A stretch of 20,000 nt of DNA from an uncultured virus (IMG/VR IMGVR_UViG_3300046529_000479) (Duplodnaviria > Heunggongvirae > Uroviricota > Caudoviricetes): IMG/VR virus record IMGVR_UViG_3300046529_000479. One strand, written 5' to 3'. Positions within the stretch are counted from its first letter, which is position 1; every line of letters starts with the position of its first letter. Below the pieces are notes generated by a model. That model was given only the letters and a program-made list of their open reading frames with translations, had not been told where the DNA came from and ran no database searches. Shown piece after piece: positions 2,359 through 18,410 of the stretch. The position numbers and the translations under genes were made by a program.

Positions 2359-3458
2359 ATCGGCGGGTCGGCGAGTCGAGAGCTCGCGCCTCGATTACCC
2401 CGATTAGCAGGGATTTTCCGCGCTTCCCCCGCTCCCGCCCGCCCCGAGGCGTAGCCCGTCTAGGCGACGTTTACCGTTTAGGCTACGGATCTCGGTTCGG
2501 AGTTAGGCGATCCCCTCCCCGCCCCCGCGCGTACCGTTCTTCGAGCCGGAGACGGGCGCCGACGTTATCCCTCGATCGTTCGAGGCGAGAGGCGGGCGGT
2601 ATTAGTCGGAGGAGCCGCGCGATCGCTACGCGCGGGCTTCGCGGGGGCGGTCTACGGCTTCCCTCGCCTCGCCCGCCTTATAGCCGCCCGGGGGACTCGA
2701 TCGGACGCGCGTAGGGTCGCCGTCCCCCGTAGGTAGGGGCGGCTCCCGGGCTTTAGAGCGTAGGCGCGCGAGCCGTAGACCTTCCTTCCTTCGGCGGGCG
2801 GTCGGAGCCTCTTAGAGAGGCTCCGAGCGTCCCGCGAGAGGCGCGCAGGGATCGACGGGGGTCGAGAGATTCGAGGCGTTCGATTCTCTCGACCCCGCTC
2901 GATCGCGCGCGCCTCGCGCGGGACGGGGAATCCTCCCCGCCCCGACGAACGAAGGAGAGAAAAGTGTCCGTATCTAAGAAAGACGCCGCGAAAATCTCGA
3001 AGCTCGCGGCCGAAGGTAAGTCCGACGCCGCGATCGACGCGGCCGTCTATCCCGGGGAGACGGGAAAGTGGAGTACGCGGGAGATCTCCTACGCGGCGCG
3101 GCGCGACGCCTACGCGGCTTCGCTCTCGCCGAACGGCCCGAAGTACGACGGGCCGATCGTCCCTTCGCGCCTCGGCGCGTTCGAGACGATCGAGAGCGTT
3201 CGAGCGTCCGACGTCGCGGCGGTACTCGCCGAGTCGCCGAAGCTACGCGCCTACGCGCTTCCGATCGTCTTCGGCTTCCGCCCGACTCGGGCGAACGTCG
3301 ATAGGCTCGGCGGCTTCGCGGTCGCGCGGAAACGCCCCGGGCGGCTCGCCTCGGGCGCCTCGCGCGCCTAGCAGGGATCGAGCGGGGGAAGGGGAGAGGC
3401 TCGCGCCTCGCCCCTTCGCCCCGGTCGCGTCCCGCGACCGAACGCGGAAGGAAGGACG
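2359..3458. other. TG/CA-depleted segment, probable first-injected genome end
   Basis: Manual scan of 1100 nt found only 3 CA (2408, 2846, 3372) and 2 TG (2965, 3069). Confidence 0.9.
2964..3371 (+). CDS. First early protein (135 aa), candidate anti-defence factor
   Basis: GAAGGAG SD, GTG start; no Cys, His, Gln or internal Met and one Trp. Function is inferred from position only. Confidence 0.8.
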   Translation: MSVSKKDAAKISKLAAEGKSDAAIDAAVYPGETGKWSTREISYAARRDAYAASLSPNGPKYDGPIVPSRLGAFETIESVRASDVAAVLAESPKLRAYALPIVFGFRPTRANVDRLGGFAVARKRPGRLASGASRA

Positions 3459-3576
3459 CAAAGCCTCGCGATCGCGAAGCCGCGCGTCCGGTTTCCGCAC
3501 GCCCTCGATTCGGAAGGGTAAGCGCAAAAGAGGAAGCTACAAAAAGTTTCCTCAAAAACGAAGGAGGGTCACGAAA

Positions 3577-3915
3577 GTGGCAAAACGGAAAAAGCCGGCA
3601 AAAAGCAGAGGGCCGGTATCATCGAAGTCCGCAAGAAGTCCGGGACAAAGCCGCGACTCAAAGATAAGCGCGGCAACCGGAACGCCCGCAATCGACCTCG
3701 AACTAGCAAGGGCCGAAGCGTGCGACGCATTCGTCGGGAACACAAACGTAGTGTTCTTCAAGAAGAAGCGCACTAAGCGTACAAAGCTCGGGCCTGCCGG
3801 ATCATGGTACAATGGCCGAGCTGAGAGCGGCGAAAAGTGCGGAGCACTCGCGATAATGTCCAGATACAAAGACGGTAAGCGAGTTCACCGCTGCGCGAAT
3901 CACATCGCGTCGTAA
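3577..3915 (+). CDS. Basic hypothetical protein with C...C...CxxH
   Basis: CGAAGGAGGG SD at 3559; Lys/Arg-rich 112 aa. Confidence 0.8.
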   Translation: MAKRKKPAKSRGPVSSKSARSPGQSRDSKISAATGTPAIDLELARAEACDAFVGNTNVVFFKKKRTKRTKLGPAGSWYNGRAESGEKCGALAIMSRYKDGKRVHRCANHIAS

Positions 3916-3994
3916 CGACAAAGACGCGCGTTGAAGGTCGAGCGACGGACAACCCGCTCGGCCTTGAACGACAAACGAAGGAGGGTACAAACAG

Positions 3995-4156
3995 ATGACA
4001 TACGCGATCCAGTCGTCAGGCAGCGGGCAGCCGCCCGTAATGACGAACATCATCGCTGAGTTCGCGACGGAAGCAGAAGCCGTCACGACACTCGCTCGAC
4101 TATTCAAGTCGAGTCCAGTTCGCAAGAACTACCTCAGCATCGTGAAAGTCAAGTAG
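3995..4156 (+). CDS. Hypothetical protein (53 aa)
   Basis: SD at 3976; MTYAIQSSGSGQPPVMTNIIAEFATEAEAVTTLARLFKSSPVRKNYLSIVKVK (manual translation). Confidence 0.8.
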   Translation: MTYAIQSSGSGQPPVMTNIIAEFATEAEAVTTLARLFKSSPVRKNYLSIVKVK

Positions 4157-4226
4157 CGAGCTGAAGATCGGGCAAGGACAACTGCCCGGTCTTGAGCACG
4201 ATACCGATACACGAAAGGAGGGTACA

Positions 4227-4325
4227 GTGTACAAATGGAAAGACGCTTGGCCGACATACATCACTGCTCTGCCAATCGTCGTAATCGCATGTGCGCTCAT
4301 TGGGCGCGCGATCTCACATCTGTAG
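4227..4325 (+). CDS. Single-pass membrane peptide (32 aa)
   Basis: AAGGAGGG then GTG; MYKWKDAWPTYITALPIVVIACALIGRAISHL; stop abuts the next element. Confidence 0.7.
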   Translation: MYKWKDAWPTYITALPIVVIACALIGRAISHL

Positions 4326-4387
4326 CAGAAGCTGCGTCGTGGACAACCGACGCGGCTTGTACTACAGACAACAAACGAAGGAGGGTC

Positions 4388-4717
4388 ATGAAGCCAGAGT
4401 TCATAGAGAAAGTCTGGACAGCAACTGACCGCGAAGTCAAAGCTGACTGGATCGCCAATCAGTATGAAGGCGAATATGTCAGCCCTCACTGGACAGTGGC
4501 TGGCGTCCAAGGTGATCAGATCATCTTCTACTGTTACGCAGAGCAACTCGGATATGAAATCTGTGTCTGGATCAGTGATTTCGATCCTAGCAACCGCTAT
4601 GGCGGCGGCGAAGGGCTTGAAAGCAGACCGACATTGCGAGGAATCGTAATGTGTATTGAAGGCGAATGCGGCTGGATCAGCATCAAGGATCACAGTATCG
4701 TCAACAACTGCAACTGA
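4388..4717 (+). CDS. Hypothetical protein (109 aa)
   Basis: SD at 4376; MKPEFIEKVW... Confidence 0.8.
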   Translation: MKPEFIEKVWTATDREVKADWIANQYEGEYVSPHWTVAGVQGDQIIFYCYAEQLGYEICVWISDFDPSNRYGGGEGLESRPTLRGIVMCIEGECGWISIKDHSIVNNCN

Positions 4718-4805
4718 TAGAAGCTGCTACTCAGGACAACGAGTAGCGGCTTGTGTCAGAAGACATGACACAGTACCACAAAATGAAAAATCGAAGGAGG
4801 GTCAA

Positions 4806-5129
4806 ATGAAAGGCGCATTCATCACCATACTGCTACTCGGCAGTCTCTTTGTCGGGGGCGGAGCATTCGCACTTCACGGGATCACCGCCGCGAGCGACAA
4901 GTCAAGTGCTCAGGTCGATCCCAACACTTTCGCAGTCCTGCCAATCGGCGTCAGCGAAAGCTACGTGAGAAGTTCATTCGGAACTCCTCAGAGCAGCGAC
5001 GACACAACTGTCGGCGGCTACGGCAGCACGTTGAACAGCCGTTGTATCTACTACGGCATCCTCAGCCAGAACGGCAGTTATCAGTTCTGCTTCGACAACG
5101 GCAAGCTCGTCTCGAAAAGCAGGTATTGA
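4806..5129 (+). CDS. Secreted or membrane-anchored protein, BLIP/SmpA-OmlA-like fold
   Basis: N-terminal hydrophobic helix; G-x-S-x3-V-x3-FGTP...CIYY...YQFCFDNGKLVSK pattern. Confidence 0.65.
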   Translation: MKGAFITILLLGSLFVGGGAFALHGITAASDKSSAQVDPNTFAVLPIGVSESYVRSSFGTPQSSDDTTVGGYGSTLNSRCIYYGILSQNGSYQFCFDNGKLVSKSRY

Positions 5130-5196
5130 GTAGCAGCTCTGTCAGATAGAATCCGACAGGGCTGGTGTTCAATACAAACGAAGGAGGGTCAGCACG

Positions 5197-5484
5197 ATGG
5201 AAGCCAAGAAAGGCGAAGTCTGCGTGGTGTCCAGCATTCCTAATTGTGATTTCTGCAATCAGGAGGGCACGAAGACGCCAGGCCCGTACGACTTCAAGAC
5301 GCGGTTTGGCCCGTGGGCTCACGGATGTGAGGATCACTGGAAGCTGTACCGTGCGTTCGACAGCCTCGGTGTTGGGCAGGCTCAGATCTGGATCACGAAA
5401 GATGAGGAGCCGAAGCACGCGCCAGGTACACTAGGCGCGATCATGTCCAGCAAGACGAACAGGTTGAACAAAGAACTGGGGTAG
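5197..5484 (+). CDS. Small Zn-binding phage protein
   Basis: CDFC...YDFKTRFGPWAHGCEDH; SD at 5179. Confidence 0.8.
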   Translation: MEAKKGEVCVVSSIPNCDFCNQEGTKTPGPYDFKTRFGPWAHGCEDHWKLYRAFDSLGVGQAQIWITKDEEPKHAPGTLGAIMSSKTNRLNKELG

Positions 5485-5562
5485 TGACCAGTGGCTCCGT
5501 CATGGAGATCAGGGACGTTCGACATGGCGGGGCCGGTGTTCATCACCAACAGAAGGAGGGTC

Positions 5563-5916
5563 ATGAACGAGGAGCAAGCAGATTTCCTTGTGAAGTTCCG
5601 CAAGGAGAATCCGCCACAACCAGTACCAGGACGAGAAATGACTGAGGAGCAGTTTCGTGCTGATCTCAATGGCGTAGCAGAACGAACAGCCAAAGACATC
5701 GGTGGCGACTATCCTCACATCGACACAGGCTTCGAGTGCTACGTGTACAAGATTGACGGCAGATTCGTCGGCTACATCTACATGGGTGAAGCTGGCGAGT
5801 GGGCCCTCATCGACAAGTTCGATCAGTTCGACACCTGTGACGAACCGGACACACAGCTTCACGACGCACCCGAGTATCTCCAACGCGTCAAAGCGCTGTC
5901 GCCATACAAACGGTGA
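5563..5916 (+). CDS. Acidic hypothetical protein (117 aa)
   Basis: SD at 5551; MNEEQADFLVKF... Confidence 0.8.
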   Translation: MNEEQADFLVKFRKENPPQPVPGREMTEEQFRADLNGVAERTAKDIGGDYPHIDTGFECYVYKIDGRFVGYIYMGEAGEWALIDKFDQFDTCDEPDTQLHDAPEYLQRVKALSPYKR

Positions 5917-5977
5917 CCAGCGGCGGGCCGGGAGTTGTCCCCCGGCCTGTCGGTGTTCATCAAACGAAGGAGGGAAC

Positions 5978-6346
5978 ATGGCAATTGTAAGCTGTTTCGA
6001 CTGCCCACAGTCCATGATGACGACAGGTGTCGCAGGCGACGATGTCAGAACGTGGATCTGCTCGGAGTGCGCTCACGAGCGCGGGCTCACGCCTAAGCTC
6101 GCAGAGCGTGTTGCGATCGAAGACGCCAAGTGGGGCAACCCATGCTGCATCTGGGAAGCATGTCCCAAGGACGTCATGAAGCAGATCCTGATTCCGATCA
6201 CAGACAACATCGAGATCGAGGCAGAGAACGCCGGCATCGAAGAAGACAATCCCAACCGCGACTCATGGATGGCACACAAGATCTCTCATCGACTCGTCGG
6301 CGTCATGAACCACATCTGGTTCGGCCCGGAGGTATTGCTCCGATGA
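5978..6346 (+). CDS. Hypothetical protein with CxxC...CxxC
   Basis: SD at 5965; MAIVSCFDC...ICSEC. Confidence 0.8.
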   Translation: MAIVSCFDCPQSMMTTGVAGDDVRTWICSECAHERGLTPKLAERVAIEDAKWGNPCCIWEACPKDVMKQILIPITDNIEIEAENAGIEEDNPNRDSWMAHKISHRLVGVMNHIWFGPEVLLR

Positions 6347-6585
6347 CAGTAGGCAAGTTCGAGATCAGAACGTGGTACGACGGCAGAACCCACAACCAGT
6401 TCCGCAAAGTAGCGGAAGTCGAAGCACCGACCGCACTTCATGCCCTGCGTGCTTACGCGGGGAACAGGCAAGCGATCATTCGACAGCGCAAAACGGACTA
6501 CAGTGACGCCAAAGACTGGACAGCCACGATCCTAAACAAGAACGGAAAGCTGCGCGACTACATCGCTGTTCGGGTACGCAACTGA
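6343..6585 (+). CDS. Hypothetical protein (80 aa)
   Basis: ATGA overlap with the upstream gene; MTVGKFEIRTWYDG... Confidence 0.75.
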   Translation: MTVGKFEIRTWYDGRTHNQFRKVAEVEAPTALHALRAYAGNRQAIIRQRKTDYSDAKDWTATILNKNGKLRDYIAVRVRN

Positions 6586-6653
6586 TCAGCCGCTGGCACA
6601 TCGCAGAGTGTGTTGGCGGGTGCTCATCCGAGCATCATCCGAAGGAGGGTCAA

Positions 6654-6689
6654 ATGATACGACTGGGGAACAGAACCGATCGAAGGTGA
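6654..6689 (+). CDS. Minigene MIRLGNRTDRR
   Basis: ATG directly after the strong SD at 6640; stop overlaps the next GTG (GTGA). Confidence 0.5.
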   Translation: MIRLGNRTDRR

Positions 6690-6910
6690 GTGTCGTGAAG
6701 TTCATCTTCATCGACATTCCCGGCTCGATTCTCATACTGTGTTTCATTCTCGGCTGGTGGTCGAGACATAACAAGGTAGTCAAGACCGTGTTCTTTGACG
6801 GGAACGAACCAGTGAAGTCGAAGCCGATTACGCCCAAGCGGATTCCAGTTCCCAAGGCTTCAAAGCCGAAGCTGTACATCGTTCGAGATCAACCAGGTAG
6901 TGAAGAGTGA
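6686..6910 (+). CDS. Small membrane protein
   Basis: FIFIDIPGSILILCFILGWW hydrophobic segment followed by a basic tail; start at 6686 or 6695. Confidence 0.7.
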   Translation: MSVVKFIFIDIPGSILILCFILGWWSRHNKVVKTVFFDGNEPVKSKPITPKRIPVPKASKPKLYIVRDQPGSEE

Positions 6911-6983
6911 ATAGCGGCTCCACAGGTCAGCTACGATCTGTGGGGCCGGTGTTCATAAGACGCCACGAAGGAGGGCCAGCAAA

Positions 6984-7367
6984 ATGCCACTCAACATCTA
7001 TGTGGAGCGAAAAGGCAAGCGTCGCAAGGATCTCATCTGGGATCAGCAGATGCTTGACTTCTGCTACACCGTGGCCTACATGGACGAAGATGCTGACCGG
7101 GAATATCAGACTGGCAAGAAGTTCGCTGACCTCGGCACCTGGACATTCGATCCAGACAACAAGCTCGGATCGAAGTGGTCAGGGCAAGAGTTCGAGCACT
7201 ATGTCACTTTCCAATTCGGTGTGTACTACATCGAGGGTGATTGTGGCCTGGTGGAGAAGGGCGAGCAAGTTGTTAAGCACAAGCATCGCTTCCTTCATTC
7301 ACAGATGGAAAAGCCAGTCGTGTTCATGCCCGGAGACAGAATCGTCGCATGGAGGTCACACAAGTGA
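6984..7367 (+). CDS. Hypothetical protein (127 aa)
   Basis: SD at 6966. Confidence 0.8.
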   Translation: MPLNIYVERKGKRRKDLIWDQQMLDFCYTVAYMDEDADREYQTGKKFADLGTWTFDPDNKLGSKWSGQEFEHYVTFQFGVYYIEGDCGLVEKGEQVVKHKHRFLHSQMEKPVVFMPGDRIVAWRSHK

Positions 7368-7585
7368 TCAAGGTCAAGATGACGCAAGAGGCATTCAACA
7401 CCATGACGACTGCACAGAAGCACAGCATTGATGTTATCCTGAACAATCCGAAACTTGAAAACGTGGTTGTTCAGAAAGGCGGACTCGATCTGCCAGACAA
7501 CTATCTGTGCTTCACGATGCACTGGACGGATCATGGCCAGCCGATTTATGGCGGCATCTCGCCCCAAGGCCAGGTGTCGACATGA
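7349..7585 (+). CDS. Hypothetical protein
   Basis: Tiles the operon; alternative start GTG 7364 after GGAGG; ends YGGISPQGQVST. Confidence 0.7.
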   Translation: MEVTQVIKVKMTQEAFNTMTTAQKHSIDVILNNPKLENVVVQKGGLDLPDNYLCFTMHWTDHGQPIYGGISPQGQVST

Positions 7586-7818
7586 TCACGTTGGAGCAAG
7601 CAAAAAGCCTGAAGCGTGGCCAGATCCTTCACCACGACATCAACAGGAACAGCGATGGCACTTGCCAACGCTGGAAGGTGAATGGTCAAGTGCAGACATG
7701 GAAGCGTGAGCCCAACCGGGTTCGCGTGCCCATTAAACACGGGCTGAGGCACTACGATGCTCTTGATAGCCAAGGTGATCTCGATCTCGTTCATCTCGAA
7801 AGCGAGTGCCCGGGATGA
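7582..7818 (+). CDS. Small phage protein (78 aa)
   Basis: ATGA overlap; MITLEQAK...NSDGTCQRWKVNGQVQTWKREPNRVRVPIKHGL. Confidence 0.8.
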   Translation: MITLEQAKSLKRGQILHHDINRNSDGTCQRWKVNGQVQTWKREPNRVRVPIKHGLRHYDALDSQGDLDLVHLESECPG

Positions 7819-7958
7819 GACTCGTTGGCTACTGCACCGTTTGCCACAAGATCAAGTACGTCCAAGTCACCGGCCACGACCTGGCCATGGCTCAGGCTCG
7901 TGGTAGCAACGTCGTGTCTGGAATCTGCGACGACTGCGAGAAAGAGCAAAGGAAGTGA
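7815..7958 (+). CDS. Zinc-ribbon peptide (47 aa)
   Basis: ATGA overlap; MRLVGYCTVCHK...GICDDCEKEQRK (manual translation). Confidence 0.75.
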   Translation: MRLVGYCTVCHKIKYVQVTGHDLAMAQARGSNVVSGICDDCEKEQRK

Positions 7959-8036
7959 GTAGCGAGTCTGTCCGTCCGATGGATCGGATAGGCTCGGTGC
8001 TCACCAGGCACCAGTAACAACAACCGAAGGAGGGTT

Positions 8037-8726
8037 ATGCCACCATTGATCGAGACGTCACCGGGCGTGCTGGAGTTCGCACTCGATCGTGTGGGTGATG
8101 ACGCAGTTGAGATCCTGGAGCTGTCGTACAACGACATCCCCTGGAGCTGGATCTGCGGCACGCTCACGCGAGCCTGTGTGCTCAACGGGCATAAGAAGCC
8201 CGAGGGCTGCGCTCTCGGCCTGATCGGCATGAACGGCGGTCTGGCTAGCTTCTCTACCAGAGTAGTGAGGCTGTGGGACAACGAGATCGGCAAGGACGTG
8301 CCGACTGGACAGTACGAAGTCCAGGGCATCTTCGAGCAGAGCGATCTGTACGCGACTTCAACGACAGCAGAGGCGATCGTATGCCTCGCGCTGGCGATCC
8401 CGAAAGAGATCACCGTCAGTAAGGCTGGCTGGTACAACGAAGTCGATGAGGCGTACGACAAGTGGGCGGATAACATCCCTCACGACGTTTCAGGAGCTGC
8501 CGACTGCGTTGTCGCCTACAACGACGACGACATCACGAGAGGCGATGCAGCGTCGTGGTTCTGCAACGCCATCGGCATCGCACGTCTGCGCCGATCCGCC
8601 GGCAAGCAGGCCTCGACGTGGATGCAGGACGAGGACGGCTGTGAAGATCCGTCTTGTCAGCAGTGCTACCCGACCAACAGCGACACCGAAGACGCTTTGG
8701 TCGAGATGTACGAGGGCGACGCCTGA
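8037..8726 (+). CDS. DUF6197-like protein, paralog of 11433-11945
   Basis: WICG...KKPEGCALG...LALAIP...YNDD...AASWF. Confidence 0.7.
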   Translation: MPPLIETSPGVLEFALDRVGDDAVEILELSYNDIPWSWICGTLTRACVLNGHKKPEGCALGLIGMNGGLASFSTRVVRLWDNEIGKDVPTGQYEVQGIFEQSDLYATSTTAEAIVCLALAIPKEITVSKAGWYNEVDEAYDKWADNIPHDVSGAADCVVAYNDDDITRGDAASWFCNAIGIARLRRSAGKQASTWMQDEDGCEDPSCQQCYPTNSDTEDALVEMYEGDA

Positions 8727-8789
8727 CCAGCGAGTCCATCCCAACAAGGATGGGCTCGGTGTTCAGACAGAACACCAGAAGGAGGGTCA

Positions 8790-9065
8790 ATGGACGAAGT
8801 CAGATCAGACAAGTTCACGGTCAACGACGATCTTGAGACGATCTCGTTTCACGACGAAGCGCAGCCGACGCTCATGCTGGCATGGATCAGCGACGATGCG
8901 AAGAGCGATCGCGGCTCGTTCTTCATCGCGGATTCAGAGAGCGAAAAGATCTTCAAGGTCACCCCGAGTCTTCACGACGATGGCATCAGAGTGATCCTGA
9001 AAGTCGATTCGCTCCACCGAGACGGCGTTGTGGAAGACAGCGCCATGATCATCAGCGTGTTCTGA
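8790..9065 (+). CDS. Acidic hypothetical protein (91 aa)
   Basis: SD at 8777. Confidence 0.8.
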   Translation: MDEVRSDKFTVNDDLETISFHDEAQPTLMLAWISDDAKSDRGSFFIADSESEKIFKVTPSLHDDGIRVILKVDSLHRDGVVEDSAMIISVF

Positions 9066-9268
9066 TGCCACAGATAGTTACTCTCCATCAGGACGAGTCA
9101 GAGATCATCGTTGCTGACACCAAGGGCAACCCGATGTTCAAGCTCAAGTTCGATAACACGGACGCGGGCTGCGAGCTGATGGTTGACATCTGGTACCCGA
9201 AGCTGCTCAGCCCCGACAAGTGGGTGGGCAACTTCGGAGACGAACCATTCATCTACGAGCCAACCTGA
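9065..9268 (+). CDS. Hypothetical protein (67 aa)
   Basis: TGATG overlap; MPQIVTLHQDESEII... Confidence 0.75.
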   Translation: MPQIVTLHQDESEIIVADTKGNPMFKLKFDNTDAGCELMVDIWYPKLLSPDKWVGNFGDEPFIYEPT

Positions 9269-9342
9269 TCAGCGAGTCTGTCCGTCCGACACGACGGGTA
9301 GGCTCGGTGCTCAGCCGAGCATCAACCACGAAGGAGGGGAGT

Positions 9343-9873
9343 ATGGCAACGACAGCCTGGACAGAGGATCCAGCATCGGAGAGCCAGCTAGAGTTCATCC
9401 ACGACCTCTCACAGAAACACGAGATGTCGGATGAGCAGGCTGAGTTCATTGCCCGAGTCCATCTCGGTGGACGGAAGCTCACCAAGGGTGAGGCCAGTCG
9501 AATCATCGACGGGCTAAAGGCATGTCCCAAGAAGCAGGTCAGTAGAGATTGGCCTGATGTCCCGGCCGGCAGGTATGCCGTGGTCGATCCGATGGACGAT
9601 GTCCTGAAGTTCTACCACGTAGACAAGCCGACTGAGGGCAAGTGGGCAGGCTACACCTTCCTGAACGTCCGTGCTTCGGATGAGCGTTATCCGATCAAAA
9701 ACACGGAGCACAAGAAGTCCATCATGACCGAGATCTCCAAGAATCCGGCAGAAGCCAGCATGCGCTACGGGCGTGAGCTGGGCAAGTGCGGGATTTGCGG
9801 ACGGACTCTCACCGATGAGCAGAGTCGAGCAAGAGGCATCGGCCCGATCTGCGCAGCGAAAGAGGGTTGGTGA
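9343..9873 (+). CDS. DUF6011-like Zn-finger protein
   Basis: C-terminal CGICGRTLTDEQSRARGIGPIC; SD at 9329. Confidence 0.85.
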   Translation: MATTAWTEDPASESQLEFIHDLSQKHEMSDEQAEFIARVHLGGRKLTKGEASRIIDGLKACPKKQVSRDWPDVPAGRYAVVDPMDDVLKFYHVDKPTEGKWAGYTFLNVRASDERYPIKNTEHKKSIMTEISKNPAEASMRYGRELGKCGICGRTLTDEQSRARGIGPICAAKEGW

Positions 9874-10076
9874 TGGCGCAAGTGAACATCAGCGTGACTC
9901 GTGTCGGACACGTCGTGACGGTGAAGACCGCCAGCAACAAGGAGATCTTCAGCGTTGAGTACAAGAACCGAGGAGAGATCATCGATTACTGTCTCTGGCT
10001 CGCTCGTACTGGCAACGTCAACGCCGACCGCCAGACGATCGTGGATCTGCTGAAGGCCAACAAGGTGATCACATGA
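9873..10076 (+). CDS. Hypothetical protein (67 aa)
   Basis: TGATG overlap. Confidence 0.75.
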   Translation: MAQVNISVTRVGHVVTVKTASNKEIFSVEYKNRGEIIDYCLWLARTGNVNADRQTIVDLLKANKVIT

Positions 10077-10207
10077 ACGAGTTTCGCTGGTATCTGCGGC
10101 GACTCTCGCTCGATGAGATCCTCGGCCTAGTCAGAACAGGGAACGTGCCCAAAACGTTCATGCCTGCGATCCTCTCTGAGTTGAAGAGAAGGAAGTACGC
10201 ATCATGA
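10073..10207 (+). CDS. Hypothetical protein (44 aa)
   Basis: ATGA overlaps at both ends; MNEFRWYLRRLSLDEILGLVRTG... Confidence 0.7.
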   Translation: MNEFRWYLRRLSLDEILGLVRTGNVPKTFMPAILSELKRRKYAS

Positions 10208-10401
10208 GCTACACGTTCACTCACTGGAGCGATCGCTTCGGCGATCAAGTCAGCAAGATGCGCGAGGCTGAAACGGGTGAAATCTACCTGACCATGCGCG
10301 ACGAGTGCGACGAAGATCTGTTGCACGACTGGTACATGGTGGGGATGAAGCCAAAGGAAGCAGCCAAGCGGTTCATGGCCGGGGAAGCGCGTGCGAAATG
10401 A
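10204..10401 (+). CDS. Hypothetical protein (65 aa)
   Basis: ATGA overlap; ...LHDWYMVGMKPKEAAKRF. Confidence 0.75.
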   Translation: MSYTFTHWSDRFGDQVSKMREAETGEIYLTMRDECDEDLLHDWYMVGMKPKEAAKRFMAGEARAK

Positions 10402-10481
10402 GACACGTGTATCTTCTGCTGTTCGAGATCCTCGTTCTGCTTCATCATGTCAAGGACGCGATCGAGCTGGTGACGCCATGA
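10398..10481 (+). CDS. Short peptide (27 aa)
   Basis: ATGA overlaps at both ends; MRHVYLLLFEILVLLHHVKDAIELVTP. Confidence 0.55.
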   Translation: MRHVYLLLFEILVLLHHVKDAIELVTP

Positions 10482-10702
10482 GTACACCAAGGCCGATTCC
10501 AGTTCCTCATTCCAGCAATGTCAAGTCGATCTCTTGGGACAGTGACAAGAGCATCATGTACGTCACGTACAAGAGCGACAAGACGTACGCCTACACAGGC
10601 GTGCCATACCAACGTGCCGTTGTGGCTGCTAACGCTCGAAGCGTCGGCAGCTATATCAACAAGCACATCAAGCCGCACTACCCCGTACAGCAGGTCGGGT
10701 AG
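10478..10702 (+). CDS. KTSC domain protein
   Basis: SSNVKSISWD...YVTYKSDKTYAYTGVP...ARSVGSYINKHIK signature. Confidence 0.9.
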   Translation: MSTPRPIPVPHSSNVKSISWDSDKSIMYVTYKSDKTYAYTGVPYQRAVVAANARSVGSYINKHIKPHYPVQQVG

Positions 10703-10774
10703 TTGCAGCTCCCGGTGTCTCTGCGGTCACCGGGGGCTGGAGTCACCCGACTCCGAGTACAGCGAAGGAGGGTC

Positions 10775-10786
10775 ATGCTGAAGTGA
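10775..10786 (+). CDS. Minigene MLK
   Basis: ATG CTG AAG TGA after the SD at 10763; stop overlaps GTG 10783. Confidence 0.4.
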   Translation: MLK

Positions 10787-11031
10787 CGAATCCGCCGAAG
10801 CTCCTCAAGATCAAAGTCGTTCCGTATGATGAGGCTGATGTCACAGCTGCGATCCAGCTTCCGGTGTTACCAGAAATGATGGATTGGGAGCACGACCTCA
10901 TCTTCAAGATCGACAACCGTGTGATCTTCGGCTTATTCATCCATCGCCACGAGAGCGGTGACATCGGAGTCGAATTGTTCGACCCGGATAGCACCGAGCC
11001 CGTGGCGACTCACCAGTTCACGGAGGCATAA
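10783..11031 (+). CDS. Hypothetical protein (82 aa)
   Basis: GTG start downstream of the SD at 10763. Confidence 0.75.
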   Translation: MTNPPKLLKIKVVPYDEADVTAAIQLPVLPEMMDWEHDLIFKIDNRVIFGLFIHRHESGDIGVELFDPDSTEPVATHQFTEA

Positions 11032-11291
11032 TGGTCGTACAGCAGGAACAGGAGAACGTCGTCTTGTACAACATCGAGGCGATCGTGGTCGAGGAAGCAG
11101 GCGACAACGCCATCTATTCGATCGCCAAAATGAGACCTACAACCGGCACTGACCGATTCAAGCCCGTCGAGTTCTTCAACGACGAGCATGAGAATCGTTG
11201 GGTGAAGTTCTGGCCCAAGAACGGCCCTGCAAAGGGCAAGCAGGCCAGCATCCCGATCGAACGCCTGGTCATGGTGGTGCACAGCAAGTGA
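11031..11291 (+). CDS. Hypothetical protein (86 aa)
   Basis: TAATG overlap with GGAGG upstream. Confidence 0.75.
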   Translation: MVVQQEQENVVLYNIEAIVVEEAGDNAIYSIAKMRPTTGTDRFKPVEFFNDEHENRWVKFWPKNGPAKGKQASIPIERLVMVVHSK

Positions 11292-11305
11292 CACAACCGC
11301 CAATC

Positions 11306-11334
11306 TTCCTATCGCCGCGTTGGTTCCGCATAAT
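11306..11334 (+). promoter_or_regulatory. Possible sigma70-type promoter
   Basis: TTCCTA-17 bp-CATAAT in an AT-richer intergenic gap. Confidence 0.3.
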
Positions 11335-11432
11335 GTGGCTAATTATTCGGGAGCGTTGGCGAAAGTGATCAGCGGGTCTGTCCTTCGGGGCAGGCCCGGT
11401 GCTCATGAGAGTACCGTAACGAAGGAGGGTCA

Positions 11433-11945
11433 ATGCCGAGAATGACAGCCAAGGTCGTCCTGGAGGAGTCCATCCTGGACATCAGGGCCGGACACTGGCT
11501 CTGTGGCGAGCTGATGCAGGAAGCAGAAGCCAACGGAAACAAGAAGCCAGATGGTTGTGCCGTCGGCCTCGCGGTCATCAACTCGAAGCTCGCGCGTGTC
11601 GTCATCGCGAAGTCTGACGACTACGATTCGGGTTTGATGGCATACTGCCCGTCGATCAACAACCCGTCGGTCTACTTCAGAGGCGACCAGAACTACCCCA
11701 AGGCCAGATTGAAGGCACTGGAGAAGTCGCTGCTTGCACTCGCGTTGGCGATCCCTGTCGATGCTCGACCCGTGACGACAGAATACAGAGGCGACGAGTA
11801 CGAAGACCAACATATCAGCAACGATGACATCAAGGGCTACAGCATCGAGCAGCTGGAGTCGCTCATCATCGAGTACAACGACTCCAGCCTCGACACGGGC
11901 ACGGCGATGAACTGGTTCAAGGCAGCGTACAGCAGCCTCAAGTGA
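11433..11945 (+). CDS. DUF6197-like protein, paralog of 8037-8726
   Basis: WLCG...KKPDGCAVG...LALAIP...YNDS...AMNWF. Confidence 0.7.
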   Translation: MPRMTAKVVLEESILDIRAGHWLCGELMQEAEANGNKKPDGCAVGLAVINSKLARVVIAKSDDYDSGLMAYCPSINNPSVYFRGDQNYPKARLKALEKSLLALALAIPVDARPVTTEYRGDEYEDQHISNDDIKGYSIEQLESLIIEYNDSSLDTGTAMNWFKAAYSSLK

Positions 11946-12005
11946 GCTGCGAGTCTACCCACTAGGGTAGGCTCGGAGTTCATCAGAACTCCAGAAGGAG
12001 GGTCA

Positions 12006-12338
12006 ATGCTCAAGGAAGAAGCTGGCTGGGTTCAGTCATTCGAGTTTCCAGGGCTCAAGGTCGTGCAGATGAAGCTATGTGAGGCCTGCAAGATCAAGTT
12101 CGATACTCACAACCAGGCCTGCATCCATGTCGCCAAGGAACACCCGAAGCTGCTCCAGATCGACAACGGCGATCTCACGGTTGTCCGTCTCGCACAAGAG
12201 CCGTACAACCAGCGCGAGCGAACGCTCACGACTCGCCAGTACCTGCTCTACAAGGGCGAGCCGGTCGTGGCAGCAGGCTACCAGGTCGAGAGCTTCGCTG
12301 AAGGCGCAGCATGGGCGCTCAAGGAGTTGTCGAGATAA
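12006..12338 (+). CDS. Hypothetical protein (110 aa)
   Basis: SD at 11993; CEAC...CIH..EH may bind metal. Confidence 0.8.
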   Translation: MLKEEAGWVQSFEFPGLKVVQMKLCEACKIKFDTHNQACIHVAKEHPKLLQIDNGDLTVVRLAQEPYNQRERTLTTRQYLLYKGEPVVAAGYQVESFAEGAAWALKELSR

Positions 12339-12386
12339 CCATGCCGGTCGAAACCCCTGGTAATCAAAGGGTTTCGGCCGGGATGG

Positions 12387-12429
12387 TTGGCTAGCCATCC
12401 CGCCACTTGTATAGTATCATACTAAGTGG
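12387..12429 (+). promoter_or_regulatory. Sigma70-type promoter with overlapping palindrome
   Basis: TTGGCT (12387)-17 bp-TATAGT (12410); imperfect palindrome CCACTTGTAT...ATACTAAGTGG at 12403-12429. Confidence 0.55.
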
Positions 12430-12460
12430 CTGAAATCCACCACTACCGAAGGAGGGATCC

Positions 12461-13537: not shown

Positions 13538-15406
13538 GTGAGTAAAATCACCGCTGAACTCTCGCCAGATGGGAAACGTATCTGGCTCCGGTTCAGCTAT
13601 GAAGTCCGTATCAAGGACACCATCAAGTTCAAGGTGCCCAACAGCCGGTTCGTTCCACCTGAGAAAGGTGGCCCGGCTTGGACAGTGCCTCTCGATCTGC
13701 CGACTGGCCGCATCCTGCGTCATCTGTTCCAGCAACAGCTCGTGCTGGGCCCGAACCTGCTCCAGTGGGGCAGGGACGAGGTTCAACGTGAGCGGAACCT
13801 GTCGGGCCTCGCGCTCGCAGAGGATGCGGAGCTGGTGTACTGTCCGGTCACAGTTCCTGGTATCGTTGAGCTAATCGCAGGCGACGGGACTGAGAACTGG
13901 CCCGATCGACCGTACCAGCGGGCAGACATCGCGTTCCTGGCGGCGACTAACGCCGGCAACCTGAACCAGATGGGCCTCGGGAAAACCATCGAAGTCATCG
14001 GTGCGATCCACGAGGCTCAGATGGAACGCGGAGAGCACTTGATCATTGCACCGAAGACTGCTCTGGAGACTGTCTGGCGACTTGAACTGGAGCGGTTCAC
14101 CGAGATCCCGGTGTTCACGCTCTACAGCGAGACATCTGCGAAGGAGCGCAACGCGCTGCCTGAGCAGATCATGGAAGCCATGGGAGTCTATGGAGGATAC
14201 GCTTTCGTCACGACCGCGAGCATGCTACGCTCGAAGTCGTGGCGAGACGTGTTCATGGAAGCTAACTGGACGAGCATCACCATCGACGAGTACCACAAGA
14301 CGGGACTCTGCGAGGGCTCGTCTCAGTTCTCCAAGCTAGCAAAAGCCATGATACGGCCTAACGGCCAGAAACGCATACCTATGAGCGGTACGCCCATGGG
14401 TGGCAAGCCAATTAAGCTCTGGTCGGCGCTGAACTTCATCGACCCCGACAGGTTTAGCTCGAAGTGGAAGTGGGCTGAACAGTGGCTGGTGATCGAGGAG
14501 GGTTTCAGGAACCACAAGATCATCATGGGCCTGAAGCCCGGCATTGAAGAGGCTTTCTATGCTTTTCATGCGCCATACCTCGTGCGCCGTCTCAAGTCGG
14601 AAGTCGCGAGCCAGCTGCCTCCGAAGCAGCAGGTGGAAGTCATGTGTGATATGACCCCGAAGCAGAACAAGCAGTATCGCGAATTTGCGCGAGCTGCCGA
14701 AATCCGCATCGAGGATCTGCACCTGTCTGCCACCAACATCCTGACGGAGTACCTGCGGTTGAAGCAGTTCGCCAACGCAGTCTGTCTCGTCCACGAGTAC
14801 GAGGTAGCATGCAAGCACAAGAAGAATGAGGGCATGCTACACGGATGCGAAGACTGCCTGGGTGAGGGGATCGTCGTCAAGCAGAAACTAATCCCGACTG
14901 AGGACTCTGGAAAGTTGCCACAACTGCTCCAGAAGCTGAACGAGATCGGGATTGACCCAGACGATCCTGAAGGTGACGCCCAGACCATTATCGCCAGCCA
15001 GTTCCGAGAAATGGTGGACATGGTAGCTGCTTGGTTAGAGAAGCAGGGCATCCCAGTGGCGAAGATCACCGGAGATACCAAAGGCAAGGAACGAGTGAAA
15101 GTCCAGCAGCAATTCCAGAAAGGTGCCGGCCCGAGAGTCGTCTGTATGACGACAACGGCCGGAGGCGTTTCGATCACGCTGGACAAAGCCGATACCTGCC
15201 ACATCCTGGATGAGACCTGGAACCCGGACGACCAGGAGCAATTGGAAGACCGGATTCACAGGATCTCGCGTATCCATCAAGTCACTTGCTACTACTACCG
15301 CTCGAAAGATACAATCGAGCAATACATCCAGGACACGACTGCCGACAAGCGTCGGCTGAACGAGATCCTGCTGGATGTACATCGTATCGCGATGAAGCAA
15401 CTGTAA
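13538..15406 (+). CDS. SNF2-family (SF2) helicase/ATPase
   Basis: MGLGKT, IDEYH, MSGTP, WNPDDQEQLEDRIHRI motifs; GTG start after the SD at 13524; HARP-like N-terminus. Confidence 0.92.
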   Translation: MSKITAELSPDGKRIWLRFSYEVRIKDTIKFKVPNSRFVPPEKGGPAWTVPLDLPTGRILRHLFQQQLVLGPNLLQWGRDEVQRERNLSGLALAEDAELVYCPVTVPGIVELIAGDGTENWPDRPYQRADIAFLAATNAGNLNQMGLGKTIEVIGAIHEAQMERGEHLIIAPKTALETVWRLELERFTEIPVFTLYSETSAKERNALPEQIMEAMGVYGGYAFVTTASMLRSKSWRDVFMEANWTSITIDEYHKTGLCEGSSQFSKLAKAMIRPNGQKRIPMSGTPMGGKPIKLWSALNFIDPDRFSSKWKWAEQWLVIEEGFRNHKIIMGLKPGIEEAFYAFHAPYLVRRLKSEVASQLPPKQQVEVMCDMTPKQNKQYREFARAAEIRIEDLHLSATNILTEYLRLKQFANAVCLVHEYEVACKHKKNEGMLHGCEDCLGEGIVVKQKLIPTEDSGKLPQLLQKLNEIGIDPDDPEGDAQTIIASQFREMVDMVAAWLEKQGIPVAKITGDTKGKERVKVQQQFQKGAGPRVVCMTTTAGGVSITLDKADTCHILDETWNPDDQEQLEDRIHRISRIHQVTCYYYRSKDTIEQYIQDTTADKRRLNEILLDVHRIAMKQL

Positions 15407-15746: not shown

Positions 15747-16748
15747 TTGACCATTCCGCGTCTCAGAACGTCGGAAAGAACAACTTTTGAACGGTGTCGT
15801 TGGCTGTGGTACCTGAACTACGTTCTCGCGCGTCGGCCGAATATCGACAGACCGCCGCTGCGCTTCGGCACCCTCATTCACGGCGCGCTCGCTGCGTACT
15901 ACAAGCCGGGCAAGAAGCGTGGGCCGAAACCAGCGTTGACTTTCGAGCGCCTATACGAGGCAGATGCGAAAGCCGCCGGTGAGTTTGGCTTCAAGGTTGA
16001 AGAGGACGAGATCTGGGCCAACGCTGCCGAGCTAGGCCCAGCGATGCTCACCAACTATGTCGATTACTACGGCGCAGACGATGAGTGGGAAGTTCTCGCG
16101 ACCGAGTATCCGTTCAGCATACGCGTCAAGCACGCGATCCCGTTTGTCTACACCGGCGTCGTGGACGGAGTTTGGCGCCACCTTCCAACCGCGAAAATTT
16201 GGATGCCAGATCACAAGACGACGGGCGGTATTGAACGTCACCCTCGCTGGCTTCTCCTTGACGAGCAGGCGGGCGCGTACTGGACATTCGGACGCGAGGC
16301 CATCTATCGCGCGAAGCTGATCCCTCGGAGTACGCAGATCTCTGGACTGCTCTTCAACTTCCTTCGTAAGGCGCCACCCGACGATCGCCCGAGGGACAAC
16401 GGCGGTAACTACCTCAACAAGGACGGCTCGATCTCTGGCAAGCAGCCGGCACCCTATTTCGATCGCAAGCCGGTGTTCCGAGACGACAAAGACCGCGACT
16501 CCGTTTATGAGCGCGTCCAGAAACAATGGGCGCAGATCCATGCCGCCACTCAGAGCGCCTGGATTTTTCACGAGGACAGCGACCTCATTTACAAGAACGC
16601 AACGAAGTGGACTTGTCAGGGATGTAGCATGTTCGACATTTGCGAGGCCCACGAGATCCAGACCGACTGGGAGGACTTAATGGAATCAACTACACAGATC
16701 TGGAATCCGTACGCGGAGCACGAGGTTATTGCAGCGGAGCAGAGATGA
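15747..16748 (+). CDS. PD-(D/E)XK RecB/Cas4-like exonuclease
   Basis: TSERTTFERCRW, FGTLIH, TEYPF, GVVDGV, DHKT, CQGCSMFDIC; GGAGGG SD before TTG 15747. Confidence 0.9.
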   Translation: MTIPRLRTSERTTFERCRWLWYLNYVLARRPNIDRPPLRFGTLIHGALAAYYKPGKKRGPKPALTFERLYEADAKAAGEFGFKVEEDEIWANAAELGPAMLTNYVDYYGADDEWEVLATEYPFSIRVKHAIPFVYTGVVDGVWRHLPTAKIWMPDHKTTGGIERHPRWLLLDEQAGAYWTFGREAIYRAKLIPRSTQISGLLFNFLRKAPPDDRPRDNGGNYLNKDGSISGKQPAPYFDRKPVFRDDKDRDSVYERVQKQWAQIHAATQSAWIFHEDSDLIYKNATKWTCQGCSMFDICEAHEIQTDWEDLMESTTQIWNPYAEHEVIAAEQR

Positions 16749-17465: not shown

Positions 17466-17617
17466 CTTTCCAGAATCATCCGGTGGTATGTATGGAATGT
17501 CGCCGACCGGCGTGGCTAAGCGTGTCGATGATGTTCTATTACTGCCCGATGTGCCGCAGATCGGTAACTGCCGAGGAAGTCTACGACAAGATGGGAAGGG
17601 AGGTGAAGAATGGCTAA
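17462..17617 (+). CDS. Zn-finger peptide (51 aa)
   Basis: GTGA overlap; CMEC...YCPMC. Confidence 0.7.
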   Translation: MTFQNHPVVCMECRRPAWLSVSMMFYYCPMCRRSVTAEEVYDKMGREVKNG

Positions 17618-18410
17618 GCCCGCCGACATCCAGCCCATCACGGCCAGCAAACACTACCGCATCCTGGTCTATGGAGATCCAGGCGCGCGCAAGACGACGC
17701 TCGCGGGAAGCGGTGGTGCGAACACGCTCATCGTTCATCCGTACGTCGAGCACCTGGACGCGATCAAGAATAGCGGTGCGGATCACTGGCTGGTGAAGGA
17801 CTGGTCGGGGATGAACGAGGTTCTTGCGTGGGCTCGACACGAGGGCAATGCGTACGAATGGATCTGGCTCGACTCGATCTCATGCTGGCAGGATGTCGGC
17901 ATGGACGACATCTTCGATGTAGCGAAGGCACGCAACCCGCGTCGCGCTACCGCTTTCTGGGACAAGGGCGACTACGGCGTCAACATGGGCAGAATCGCAG
18001 AATGGGTGAGGTTCATGATGGGCTGCGATCTGTTCCATCTCGGCATCACGGCTCACCAGTTCTGGATGGAAGTCCAAGAAGGAGAGCCGGATGAGGAAAT
18101 GGGCCCACAATACACCGAGCGCATGATGCCGTGGATCCAGGGCAAAGGTATGCCACAGCGGATCGCTGGCTACATGCAGATGGTTGGCTACCAGACAGTC
18201 CACGACTCGAAGAAGCGGAAAGGAGAGCAATACACCAAGACACGTTTCAAAGGCAACACTGCGTTCTACGGAAAGGATCAGTTCCATGCCTTTCCAAGTG
18301 GTCAGGTAATCGACCTGACTGTACCAAAGCTAGAAGCAGCAATCAAGCAGGCGCGCGAAAGTGCGCCCACCACTACCAGACGTAGGAGGAACACAGTTGC
18401 CAGCAATTAG
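17610..18410 (+). CDS. AAA_24/Sak4-like ATPase (recombination)
   Basis: ILVYGDPGARKTT, WIWLDSIS, ITAH; lies between the exonuclease and the SSB-like gene. Confidence 0.85.
   Translation: MAKPADIQPITASKHYRILVYGDPGARKTTLAGSGGANTLIVHPYVEHLDAIKNSGADHWLVKDWSGMNEVLAWARHEGNAYEWIWLDSISCWQDVGMDDIFDVAKARNPRRATAFWDKGDYGVNMGRIAEWVRFMMGCDLFHLGITAHQFWMEVQEGEPDEEMGPQYTERMMPWIQGKGMPQRIAGYMQMVGYQTVHDSKKRKGEQYTKTRFKGNTAFYGKDQFHAFPSGQVIDLTVPKLEAAIKQARESAPTTTRRRRNTVASN

Follow-up and report, generated by a model that had tools for sequence, protein, structure and literature searches.

A recurrent two-state RNA element punctuates the early-gene cassettes of an uncultured Caudoviricetes phage

We analysed a stretch of 20,000 nucleotides from an uncultured virus of the Caudoviricetes (IMG/VR record IMGVR_UViG_3300046529_000479), referred to throughout as the window. 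The window carries a run of about 30 small + strand open reading frames (ORFs), from 3577 to 12338, with almost no family matches. The gene blocks of this early operon are separated by 15 copies of a hairpin element, which we number E1 to E15. We conclude that the element is genuine, that it punctuates early-gene cassettes as a two-state signal at the RNA level, and that it is a new sequence family of a kind noticed but unexplained in actinobacteriophages. Folding predicts that its RNA can form either of two structures. State A is a helix of about 20 bp in which a lower stem containing the stop codon of the upstream gene is followed by a G/G mismatch and an upper stem of 10-14 bp, with a U.G pair five pairs above the mismatch. 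State B is predicted to consist of the upper hairpin alone and a second hairpin of 5-7 bp (hairpin 2) formed from the freed 3' arm of the lower stem. The two states exclude each other, since hairpin 2 re-uses that 3' arm.

A sequence-only reading of the window had proposed 15 + strand hairpins with stems of about 11-14 bp and a wobble at position 5 of every stem. Using a pairing script that extended pairs outward from the stem starts given in that reading, together with folding, we found hairpins on the + strand at all 15 places. The long hairpin stems were confirmed, with a contiguous length of the inner stem of 10-14 bp in 15/15 copies instead of the proposed range; a few inner stems continue past a small interruption. 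The wobble counts were reproduced, with T.G at inner-stem position 5 in 14 copies and G.T in one (E7, stem from 5921). RNA folds of the 15 long hairpins had energies of -23.6 to -37.2 kcal/mol and z-scores of -3.0 to -8.3 against dinucleotide shuffles (200 per copy). Shuffles folding as well as the element numbered 0/200 for 14 copies and 1/200 for E8. The predicted helices comprise 17-28 pairs in most copies and lie at sites between gene blocks of one + strand operon. The + strand fold was more stable than that of the complement in 15/15 copies (mean -30.8 versus -21.3 kcal/mol).

The variation between copies was also compensatory, as the sequence-only reading had claimed. In a seed alignment of eight copies (A4), 96.5% of cells were paired, compared with 30-41% in slid controls, and 10 of 18 pairs changed on both sides, a result reached by 0/500 shuffles. 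E13 was left out of this seed because its 3' arm was shifted by one base in the alignment. A set of 28 copies from five genomes (the window, its sister genome copy, and the related loci L121, L124 and L129) was 96.2% paired against 36-41% in slid controls, with 14 of 18 pairs changing on both sides. The 28-copy alignment was fitted to R1, a covariance model built from the eight copies, and alignments A7 and A11 were model-fitted; MAFFT alignments A1, A2 and A8 misplaced arms near variable loops and were excluded from the counts. R1 recovered 15/15 window copies on the + strand, with scores of 55-65 bits for the seeds and 7.9-22.8 bits for the other seven copies; complements scored 10-23 bits. 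Non-Watson-Crick cells in 33 elements were G.U in 75 cases, A.C in 7 and other in 17. This excess of G.U over A.C (75:7) points to selection on the transcribed strand, that of the mRNA, in agreement with the earlier prediction that a folded + strand is under selection.

Four features had been missed: an outer stem containing the stop codon, the G/G mismatch, hairpin 2 and a 13-nt ribosome-binding box. The hairpins belong to longer helices of about 20 bp, each beginning at the upstream stop codon; an outer stem of 6-7 bp (typically 5'-TGANNA with TGYTCA-3') lies under the inner stem and has the stop codon in its 5' arm. In 29 of 33 elements (window, L121, L124 and L129), an open frame of 35 codons or more terminates between 5 and 13 nt short of the 5' mismatch G; the distance is exactly 6 nt in 15 of these 29 and 5-7 nt in 24. 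In E3 and E13, where a TAG stop is found at another place, the outer 3' arm is different yet complementary. The G/G mismatch between outer and inner stems is present in 15/15 elements of the window and in 33/33 across the four phages. It is located 10-14 contiguous bp below the loop in the window copies and 6-7 bp above the base of the helix. Loops and stems vary freely apart from the G/G mismatch, the U.G pair and a shared loop motif. The hairpins are followed on their 3' side by an A/C-rich linker, the strong 13-nt ribosome-binding box and the next gene. With up to 2 mismatches allowed, the box, CGAAGGAGGGTCA, is found at 14 places in the window, every one of them on the + strand (0.69 expected).

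The 3' arm of the outer stem doubles as the 5' arm of hairpin 2, typically GGUGYUC, a 4-nt loop and GARCACC. Hairpin 2 was read from the folds in 27 of 36 elements. We also examined 24 3' flanks in a gap-free alignment (A9) that was fitted to no structure and included copies without hairpin 2. Hairpin 2 was 71% paired in this alignment, compared with 35-45% in slid controls, and 6 of 7 pairs changed on both sides (0/500 shuffles). We then forced the two states computationally, blocking the downstream partner for state A and the 5' arm for state B. In 19 of 30 elements the energies of the two states differed by no more than 3 kcal/mol.

The individual elements were as follows.

E1, 3929..3994, + strand: outer stem CGTT/AACG, G/G, 11-bp inner stem 3934-3965 with T.G at position 5; loop with GGACAAC, then ribosome box; no hairpin 2; upstream stop 3913-3915 outside the stem; z-score -5.9; 7.9 bits with R1.
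E2, 4153..4226, + strand: TAG 4154-4156 in the outer arm, G/G, inner stem 4164-4193; hairpin 2 absent or weak.
E3, 4319..4387, + strand: TAG 4323-4325 in outer stem TCTGTAG/CTACAGA, G/G, inner stem 4329-4358.
E4, 4714..4805, + strand: TGA 4715-4717 in the outer stem, G/G, inner stem 4721-4752; hairpin 2 TGTGTCA...TGACACA.
E5, 5123..5196, + strand: TGA 5127-5129 in the outer stem, G/G, inner stem 5134-5164; no hairpin 2.
E6, 5480..5562, + strand: tandem TAG-TGA 5482-5487 in the outer arm, G/G, 13-bp inner stem 5492-5535 with an 18-nt loop; weak 4-bp hairpin 2.
E7, 5912..5977, + strand: TGA 5914-5916, G/G, inner stem 5921-5952 with G.T at position 5; no hairpin 2.
E8, 6582..6653, + strand: TGA 6583-6585, G/G, inner stem 6590-6619 with four G.U; hairpin 2 GTGCTC...GAGCAT; ribosome box, then an 11-codon mini-ORF.
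E9, 6907..6983, + strand: TGA 6908-6910, outer stem GTGAATA/TGTTCAT, G/G, 14-bp inner stem 6915-6948; z-score -8.3.
E10, 7955..8036, + strand: TGA 7956-7958, outer stem GTGAGTA/TGCTCAC, G/G, inner stem 7963-7996; hairpin 2 GGTGC...GCACC.
E11, 8723..8789, + strand: TGA 8724-8726, G/G, inner stem 8731-8758; hairpin 2 GGTGTTC...GAACACC.
E12, 9265..9342, + strand: TGA 9266-9268, G/G, inner stem 9273-9306; hairpin 2 GTGCTC...GAGCAT.
E13, 10695..10782, + strand: TAG 10700-10702 in outer stem TCGGGT/ACCCGA, G/G, inner stem 10706-10739; hairpin 2 GGAGTC...GACTCC; box, then a 3-codon mini-ORF overlapping the GTG start at 10783.
E14, 11365..11432, + strand: G/G, inner stem 11373-11398 with a UUCG loop; hairpin 2 GGTGCTC...GAGTACC; its own TGA 11366-11368 closes only a 58-codon open frame, no called gene.
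E15, 11942..12005, + strand: TGA 11943-11945, outer stem GTGAGCT/AGTTCAT, G/G, inner stem 11950-11975; hairpin 2 GGAGTTC...GAACTCC.

The counterpart of E7 in L121, with its fold paired by hand, also has G.T at position 5. The loops of E1 to E4 share GGACAAC (3945-3955, 4175-4183, 4340-4347 and 4733-4740) despite different stems, and the L121 element at 1327-1336 has the loop motif GGACAAA; GGACAAC may be a subfamily-specific loop signal. The boxes of E8 and E13 drive mini-ORFs of 11 and 3 codons (6654-6694 and 10776-10787), whose stop codons lie before the GTG start of the real gene or overlap it (6695 and 10783), an arrangement that suggests leader-peptide coupling. A terminator-like hairpin with a T-rich tail is located before E14, at 11314-11339, and the region 11292-11372 may be the remnant of a lost cassette.

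We next considered how copies and cassettes have changed between genomes. The IMG/VR record holding all sampled words of the window (G001; 129,757 bases) consists of two head-to-tail genome copies of about 65 kb each, with an identity of 74-96% in blocks. This double copy may be genuine, a diverged dimer, or an artefact of assembling mixed strains. R1 gave 17 matches in G001 at E <=0.01, all on one strand and in two clusters corresponding to two early operons, at 120,659-127,520 (the window) and 55,625-63,057 (the sister genome copy). Hand pairing of the sister-copy counterparts of E9, E11, E14 and E15 showed that the changed stems still pair and that U.G at position 5 is kept. An automatic tally of window against sister (12 compensatory, 8 one-sided paired, 17 broken and 284 unchanged) was contaminated, with E2, E6, E10 and E12 aligned to paralogous copies and gaps interfering, and was not used. 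E13 and its counterpart in L121 have orthologous neighbour genes, and no similarity of stem sequence was seen between them.

Two cassette indels could be read. The first is a unit present only in the window, consisting of the gene 3995-4156 and E2; the sister copy has a single element there, with a stem identical to that of E1. The second is a unit found only in the sister copy, behind the E15 counterpart, and comprises a gene of about 56 codons and an element. Both times the hairpin moves with its upstream gene, which fits a 3'-end element and indicates that the hairpin belongs to the preceding and not the following gene. The sequence-only reading had placed an element before each module; this was correct as to position and not as to assignment. 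These gene-content changes do not break in the main hairpin: both joints are in the hairpin 2 and ribosome-box region. Blocks of nucleotide homology with L121 start or stop inside elements (6940, 9296 and 11393-11949), a pattern that is partly unavoidable since every gap carries an element. The module 11433-11945 is found at another position in L121, and region 7970-9296 of the window is replaced by 6970-8044 in the sister copy. Exchange of cassettes is more probably a side effect of the box being repeated.

L121 also contains tandem elements without a gene between them (5516-5567 and 5571-5632), where the window has the gene 7815-7958. In the sister copy, an extra 111-codon ORF (- strand 9180-9515 of L156, which is G001 48000-67000) is joined by an ATGA overlap to the end of a KTSC-domain gene, before the E13 counterpart. 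This insertion is not bounded by an element. A candidate assignment of the ORF as an HNH endonuclease was withdrawn, as it had no Pfam match.

To survey relatives, we used thirty IMG/VR loci with related helicases. R1 matched L121 (helicase identity 77%) and L124, L128 and L129 (53-54%), all of which have the same architecture with entirely different stems. L130 and L133 (44-45% helicase identity) carry the design with other flanks and are invisible to R1. A strict motif scan of IMG/VR returned only the contigs of L121, L124 and L129; a loose scan of viral contigs gave at least 120 single-hit loci, which are chance matches and uninformative. The Cluster M mycobacteriophage Estes has the same design in the gaps of its leftward genes 157-172. 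Folds there showed interrupted hairpins of about 20 bp starting from the stop codon, alternative small hairpins re-using the 3' arm, and a recurring box, ACACGGAGAAGGGA, which we take to be CR3. R1 matched one Estes site (22.2 bits, E 7e-4).

In an Rfam search of the window, only four weak matches at E up to 1 were obtained, none inside an element, and a scan of 28 related loci (L128 and L148 being outside it) found two tRNAs only and no ribozymes, hammerhead and twister included, at the gathering score. The sequence-only reading had called the element an apparently undescribed cis element. It is indeed a cis element matching no Rfam family, but the presence of the design in Estes makes "undescribed" only partly apt. 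Stem-loops upstream of the Cluster M repeats CR3 and CR4 are mentioned, without a function, in the accessible text of PMC7953290. The likeness consists of a stem-loop directly 5' of a conserved ribosome-site repeat between small non-structural genes; the box differs (ACACGGAGAAGGGA in Estes, CGAAGGAGGGTCA here), as do the flanks. In the literature we found no account of the two-state fold, of the G/G mismatch or of the register of the stop codon, although Pope et al. 2014 (J Virol) could contain one.

A published positional analogue of the elements is the Cluster K SAS/ESAS pair. SAS is a 13-nt conserved box with a Shine-Dalgarno core located 3-7 bp before the starts of non-structural genes, in one orientation; ahead of about half of the copies there are imperfect inverted repeats of 17 bp, separated by a spacer that varies (PMC3203893). 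Its authors saw no support for RNA pairing in the ESAS repeat arms and preferred to interpret them as DNA-binding sites (PMC3203893), and SAS/ESAS function was described as still untested in a 2025 paper (PMC12699233). The SAS consensus had no matches in the window at up to 2 mismatches. In contrast to ESAS, the arms here vary and compensate, and the pairing covaries strongly. The PeSL of T4-type phages is likewise a repeated regulatory motif between novel small early genes, with gene insertion, deletion and replacement, according to the sections available (PMC2839356, PMC4122927). PeSL comprises an early promoter and a terminator-like stem-loop, whereas no promoter-like sequence was recognised here and the conserved part is a ribosome site.

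The sequence-only reading had offered three possible functions: a transcript processing or stabilising site, an antiterminator, or a folded recombination site. The first of these fits best, by analogy, and our leading, if tentative, interpretation is that the elements mark sites of processing and stabilisation in the manner of the T7 RNase III signals. Under this model, the elements would provide mRNA-level punctuation at the 3' end of early-gene cassettes. A double-stranded-RNA-specific nuclease, most simply host RNase III, would recognise state A and, restricted by the G/G mismatch, would cleave only once, on the 3' side. The upper hairpin would then form the end of the upstream message and block 3' exonucleases, and the freed 3' arm would snap into hairpin 2, which would serve as a cap where the downstream message begins; stem-loops at the 5' end protect bacterial mRNA. 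The long early transcript would in this way give rise to separately stable single-cassette messages, as at the T7 early RNase III signals.

Several observations were counted in favour of this processing model. The structure is real and on the RNA strand, as judged by the z-scores, the greater stability of the + strand and the G.U bias. The long helix covaries. Its geometry is like that of an RNase III signal: a defect separates a lower stem from an upper stem of roughly one turn. Hairpin 2 covaries and the two states are nearly isoenergetic; the elements are placed only between gene blocks of one operon; and the design is kept in L121, L124, L128, L129, L130, L133 and Estes. In the accessible part of PMC3867540, the T7 early precursor of about 7000 nt is described as having five RNase III signals, mismatches at RNase III target sites as allowing the cutting of one strand only, and such single-strand cuts as leaving 3' hairpins that stabilise the RNA. 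On that partial account, the T7 signals resemble our elements in being hairpins of about two turns with an internal defect, between small genes of the early operon at the leading end. They differ in number (five there, 15 here), and the elements here have a stop codon inside the helix and a covarying alternative hairpin. Cleavage is known in T7 and is only proposed for the elements here, in a phage whose host is probably an actinobacterium. The defect here is a 1x1 G/G mismatch, and the loops of T7 RNase III sites are larger and asymmetric.

Other observations weigh against the processing model. Cleavage at the elements is pure inference. The model does not need a fixed stop-codon register, which is nonetheless seen (24/29 at 5-7 nt). 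Cleavage slightly to the 3' side of the mismatch, by a few bases, would leave a shorter hairpin 2, and hairpin 2 is missing in 9 of 36 copies, including E1 to E3, E5 and E7. Regularly spaced G/G and U.G defects could equally serve to evade RNase III. The position-5 pair is not absolute, being U.G in 22 of 28 copies, C-G in 5 and unpaired in 1. A phage-encoded RNase III (PF14622) was found in none of the five related records G002-G006, G001 not having been searched for it. The gene after E8 has one + strand promoter-like call in its opening bases (6711-6738), within the operon. Finally, the shuffle counts overstate significance, because the copies are related and the alignment was fitted to the model; the slid controls and the unfitted A9 result are free of this weakness.

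The alternative that survives best, although we consider it unlikely, is a decay barrier or insulator that works without cleavage. The hairpin would stop 3' exonucleases and keep the gap folded against Rho or RNase E, and the G/G and U.G defects would allow ribosomes to melt the helix, or make it a poor target for RNase III. Stable hairpins without a U-tract agree with such a role, as do hairpins that start 5-7 nt past the stop, leaving no naked RNA behind the last ribosome. That the hairpin stays with its upstream gene, and that helix defects recur at fixed places, would also be expected. A simple barrier nevertheless leaves the covarying lower stem and the mutually exclusive hairpin 2 unexplained, together with the near-isoenergetic states and the constant G opposite G.

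Another alternative is a termination-sensing switch, in which a ribosome at the stop in the lower stem would melt state A and drive state B, tying a downstream event to translation of the upstream gene. The output could be re-initiation, hand-over of the ribosome, or protection of translated messages from cleavage. This reading would account for the stop in the 5' arm at a fixed distance (6 nt in 15 elements, 5-7 nt in 24/29), for the matching 3' arms of outer stems built on other stops (E3 and E13), and for states A and B being within 3 kcal/mol in 19/30 elements. However, the predicted unpaired probability of the ribosome site over 33 elements was 0.57 with the 5' arm blocked and 0.57 with it free. 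The simplest coupling model fails since this accessibility is unchanged, and ribosome-driven unmasking of the ribosome-binding site was rejected as a candidate. In addition, the element is retained at E1 and E14, where no gene terminates inside it, and genes in this operon that need coupling simply overlap. Taken together, a switch of this kind seems rather improbable to us.

Slightly more doubtful still is a wider form of this reading, a translation-sensing switch carried by every gene cassette, in which a ribosome terminating at the stop in the lower stem flips a near-isoenergetic helix from a nuclease-sensitive two-turn form to the two-hairpin form. If this were true, the lifetime of the message of each cistron would be set by whether that cistron is translated. 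A self-contained unit of stop, hairpin, leader and ribosome site would then make early genes plug-and-play across actinophages.

Two further readings are each no better than a long shot. The first is that the elements are intrinsic terminators or attenuators without a U-tract, giving graded or regulated read-through as reported for the phiC31 early region. GC-rich hairpins directly after genes would suit this function, and stem-loops without poly-U between the early genes of an actinophage are what the available phiC31 description offers as a likeness. Yet a U-tract was absent from 15/15 elements, as the sequence-only reading had stated, the 3' flank being GGTGYTCA. A terminator scan of the window gave 15 sites against 15.5 expected; its four + strand calls included no element hairpin, and the two calls that overlap E2 and E6 (4198-4183 and 5492-5475) are on the - strand, the wrong one. 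Later work, as far as its accessible text shows, found that purified mycobacterial RNA polymerase needs a U-tract and runs through proposed U-less terminators (PMC3993855). No promoter-like site was recognised in the gaps between gene blocks, the one + strand call being that at 6711-6738; the promoter scan of the window gave 8 sites, with 6.3 expected in shuffles. The most conserved genes sit behind at least 11 elements, and termination would leave hairpin 2 and the lower stem unexplained.

The second long shot is a docking site for an RNA-binding protein of phage or host that reads the G/G and U.G, acting as a translational regulator, an antiterminator or an endonuclease. An invariant G/G and a wobble kept through compensatory change are typical recognition marks, and loop motifs recur (GGACAAC in E1 to E4, GGACAAA in L121). 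However, loops and stems are otherwise free to vary, and no candidate protein was found, profile searches having assigned no Pfam or PHROG function to the early genes of the operon.

Integron attC sites form a cassette array in which imperfect inverted repeats have conserved ends, conserved unpaired bases and variable centres, and the single-gene cassettes here are similarly separated by imperfect inverted repeats. A DNA-level recombination site for cassette exchange, using an attC-like fold or homologous repeats, could draw on gene content that differs by whole cassettes bounded by elements, on the tandem elements of L121 and on the Sak4-like and Cas4-like recombination proteins of the phage, but we regard it as very improbable: a tyrosine recombinase (PF00589) was found in 0/6 records (G001-G006, five rated complete; the control search was positive in 14/14 named genomes), both readable indel joints are in the ribosome box and outside the hairpin, no R- or L-box sequences were seen, stems within one genome differ in sequence but retain the fold, whereas homology-driven exchange would need the reverse, and three consecutive G.U pairs in E8 and the UUCG loop of E14 point to RNA. 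HK022 put sites occur once or twice per genome, just behind promoters. Fifteen copies in series, each after a gene, are a poor fit to such an antiterminator, and neither this proposal nor the attC-like site from the sequence-only reading was borne out.

Actinophage genomes are full of small early genes without an assigned function, the expression of which is poorly understood, and the repeats before such genes (SAS/ESAS and CR3/CR4) have been catalogued for more than ten years without a mechanism. The window supplies a sharp structural definition, a stop-anchored helix with two folds, an invariant G/G and a kept U.G, that by covariation acts as RNA. Since the same design occurs in a cultivable phage of Mycobacterium smegmatis, the candidate mechanisms (processing, stabilisation and translation sensing) are directly testable. 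If confirmed, the element would define a widespread RNA class missing from Rfam and a natural cistron insulator for engineering operons in actinobacteria.

The remainder of the window provides the context of the operon. The G+C content of the window is 57.7%, and no near match to it was found among deposited phages. A helicase stretch has about 70% nucleotide identity over 4% of the query to Gordonia and Rhodococcus phages, and the Cas4-like exonuclease is 36-38% identical to those of Streptomyces, Mycobacterium and Gordonia phages. By sequence comparison, the replication genes are only distantly like those of actinobacteriophages. The replication module is located 3' of the early ORF run, behind a promoter-like site at 12387-12415, and includes the following genes.

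13538-15406: SNF2 helicase.
15747-16748: PD-(D/E)XK exonuclease.
17610-18410: Sak4-like protein.
From 19189: primase.

The early operon ends in a strong hairpin (12336-12389) and a second hairpin, followed by the promoter-like TTGGCT-17-TATAGT (12387-12415), which a palindrome of about 27 nt overlaps. A CTAGCCATCC...GGTATAGT/GGTATGAT/GGTATACT motif at the operon end recurs before the orthologous gene in L121, L124 and L129. The site 12336-12460 is probably the regulated promoter and operator of the replication module. At the other side of the operon, stretches 2280-2960 and 3372-3560 are G+C-rich, non-coding and heavily structured; the piece 3360-3579 folds at -113.9 kcal/mol, and an Rfam microRNA match at 2828-2925 is weak and far below threshold. 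The window seems to cross the ends of record G001, with the end of the record at about window position 2887 by coordinate arithmetic, and the structured stretch near this position may be a physical genome end. Within the operon, the cassettes 8037-8726 and 11433-11945 encode paralogous proteins without an assigned function (27% identity, E 1e-13).

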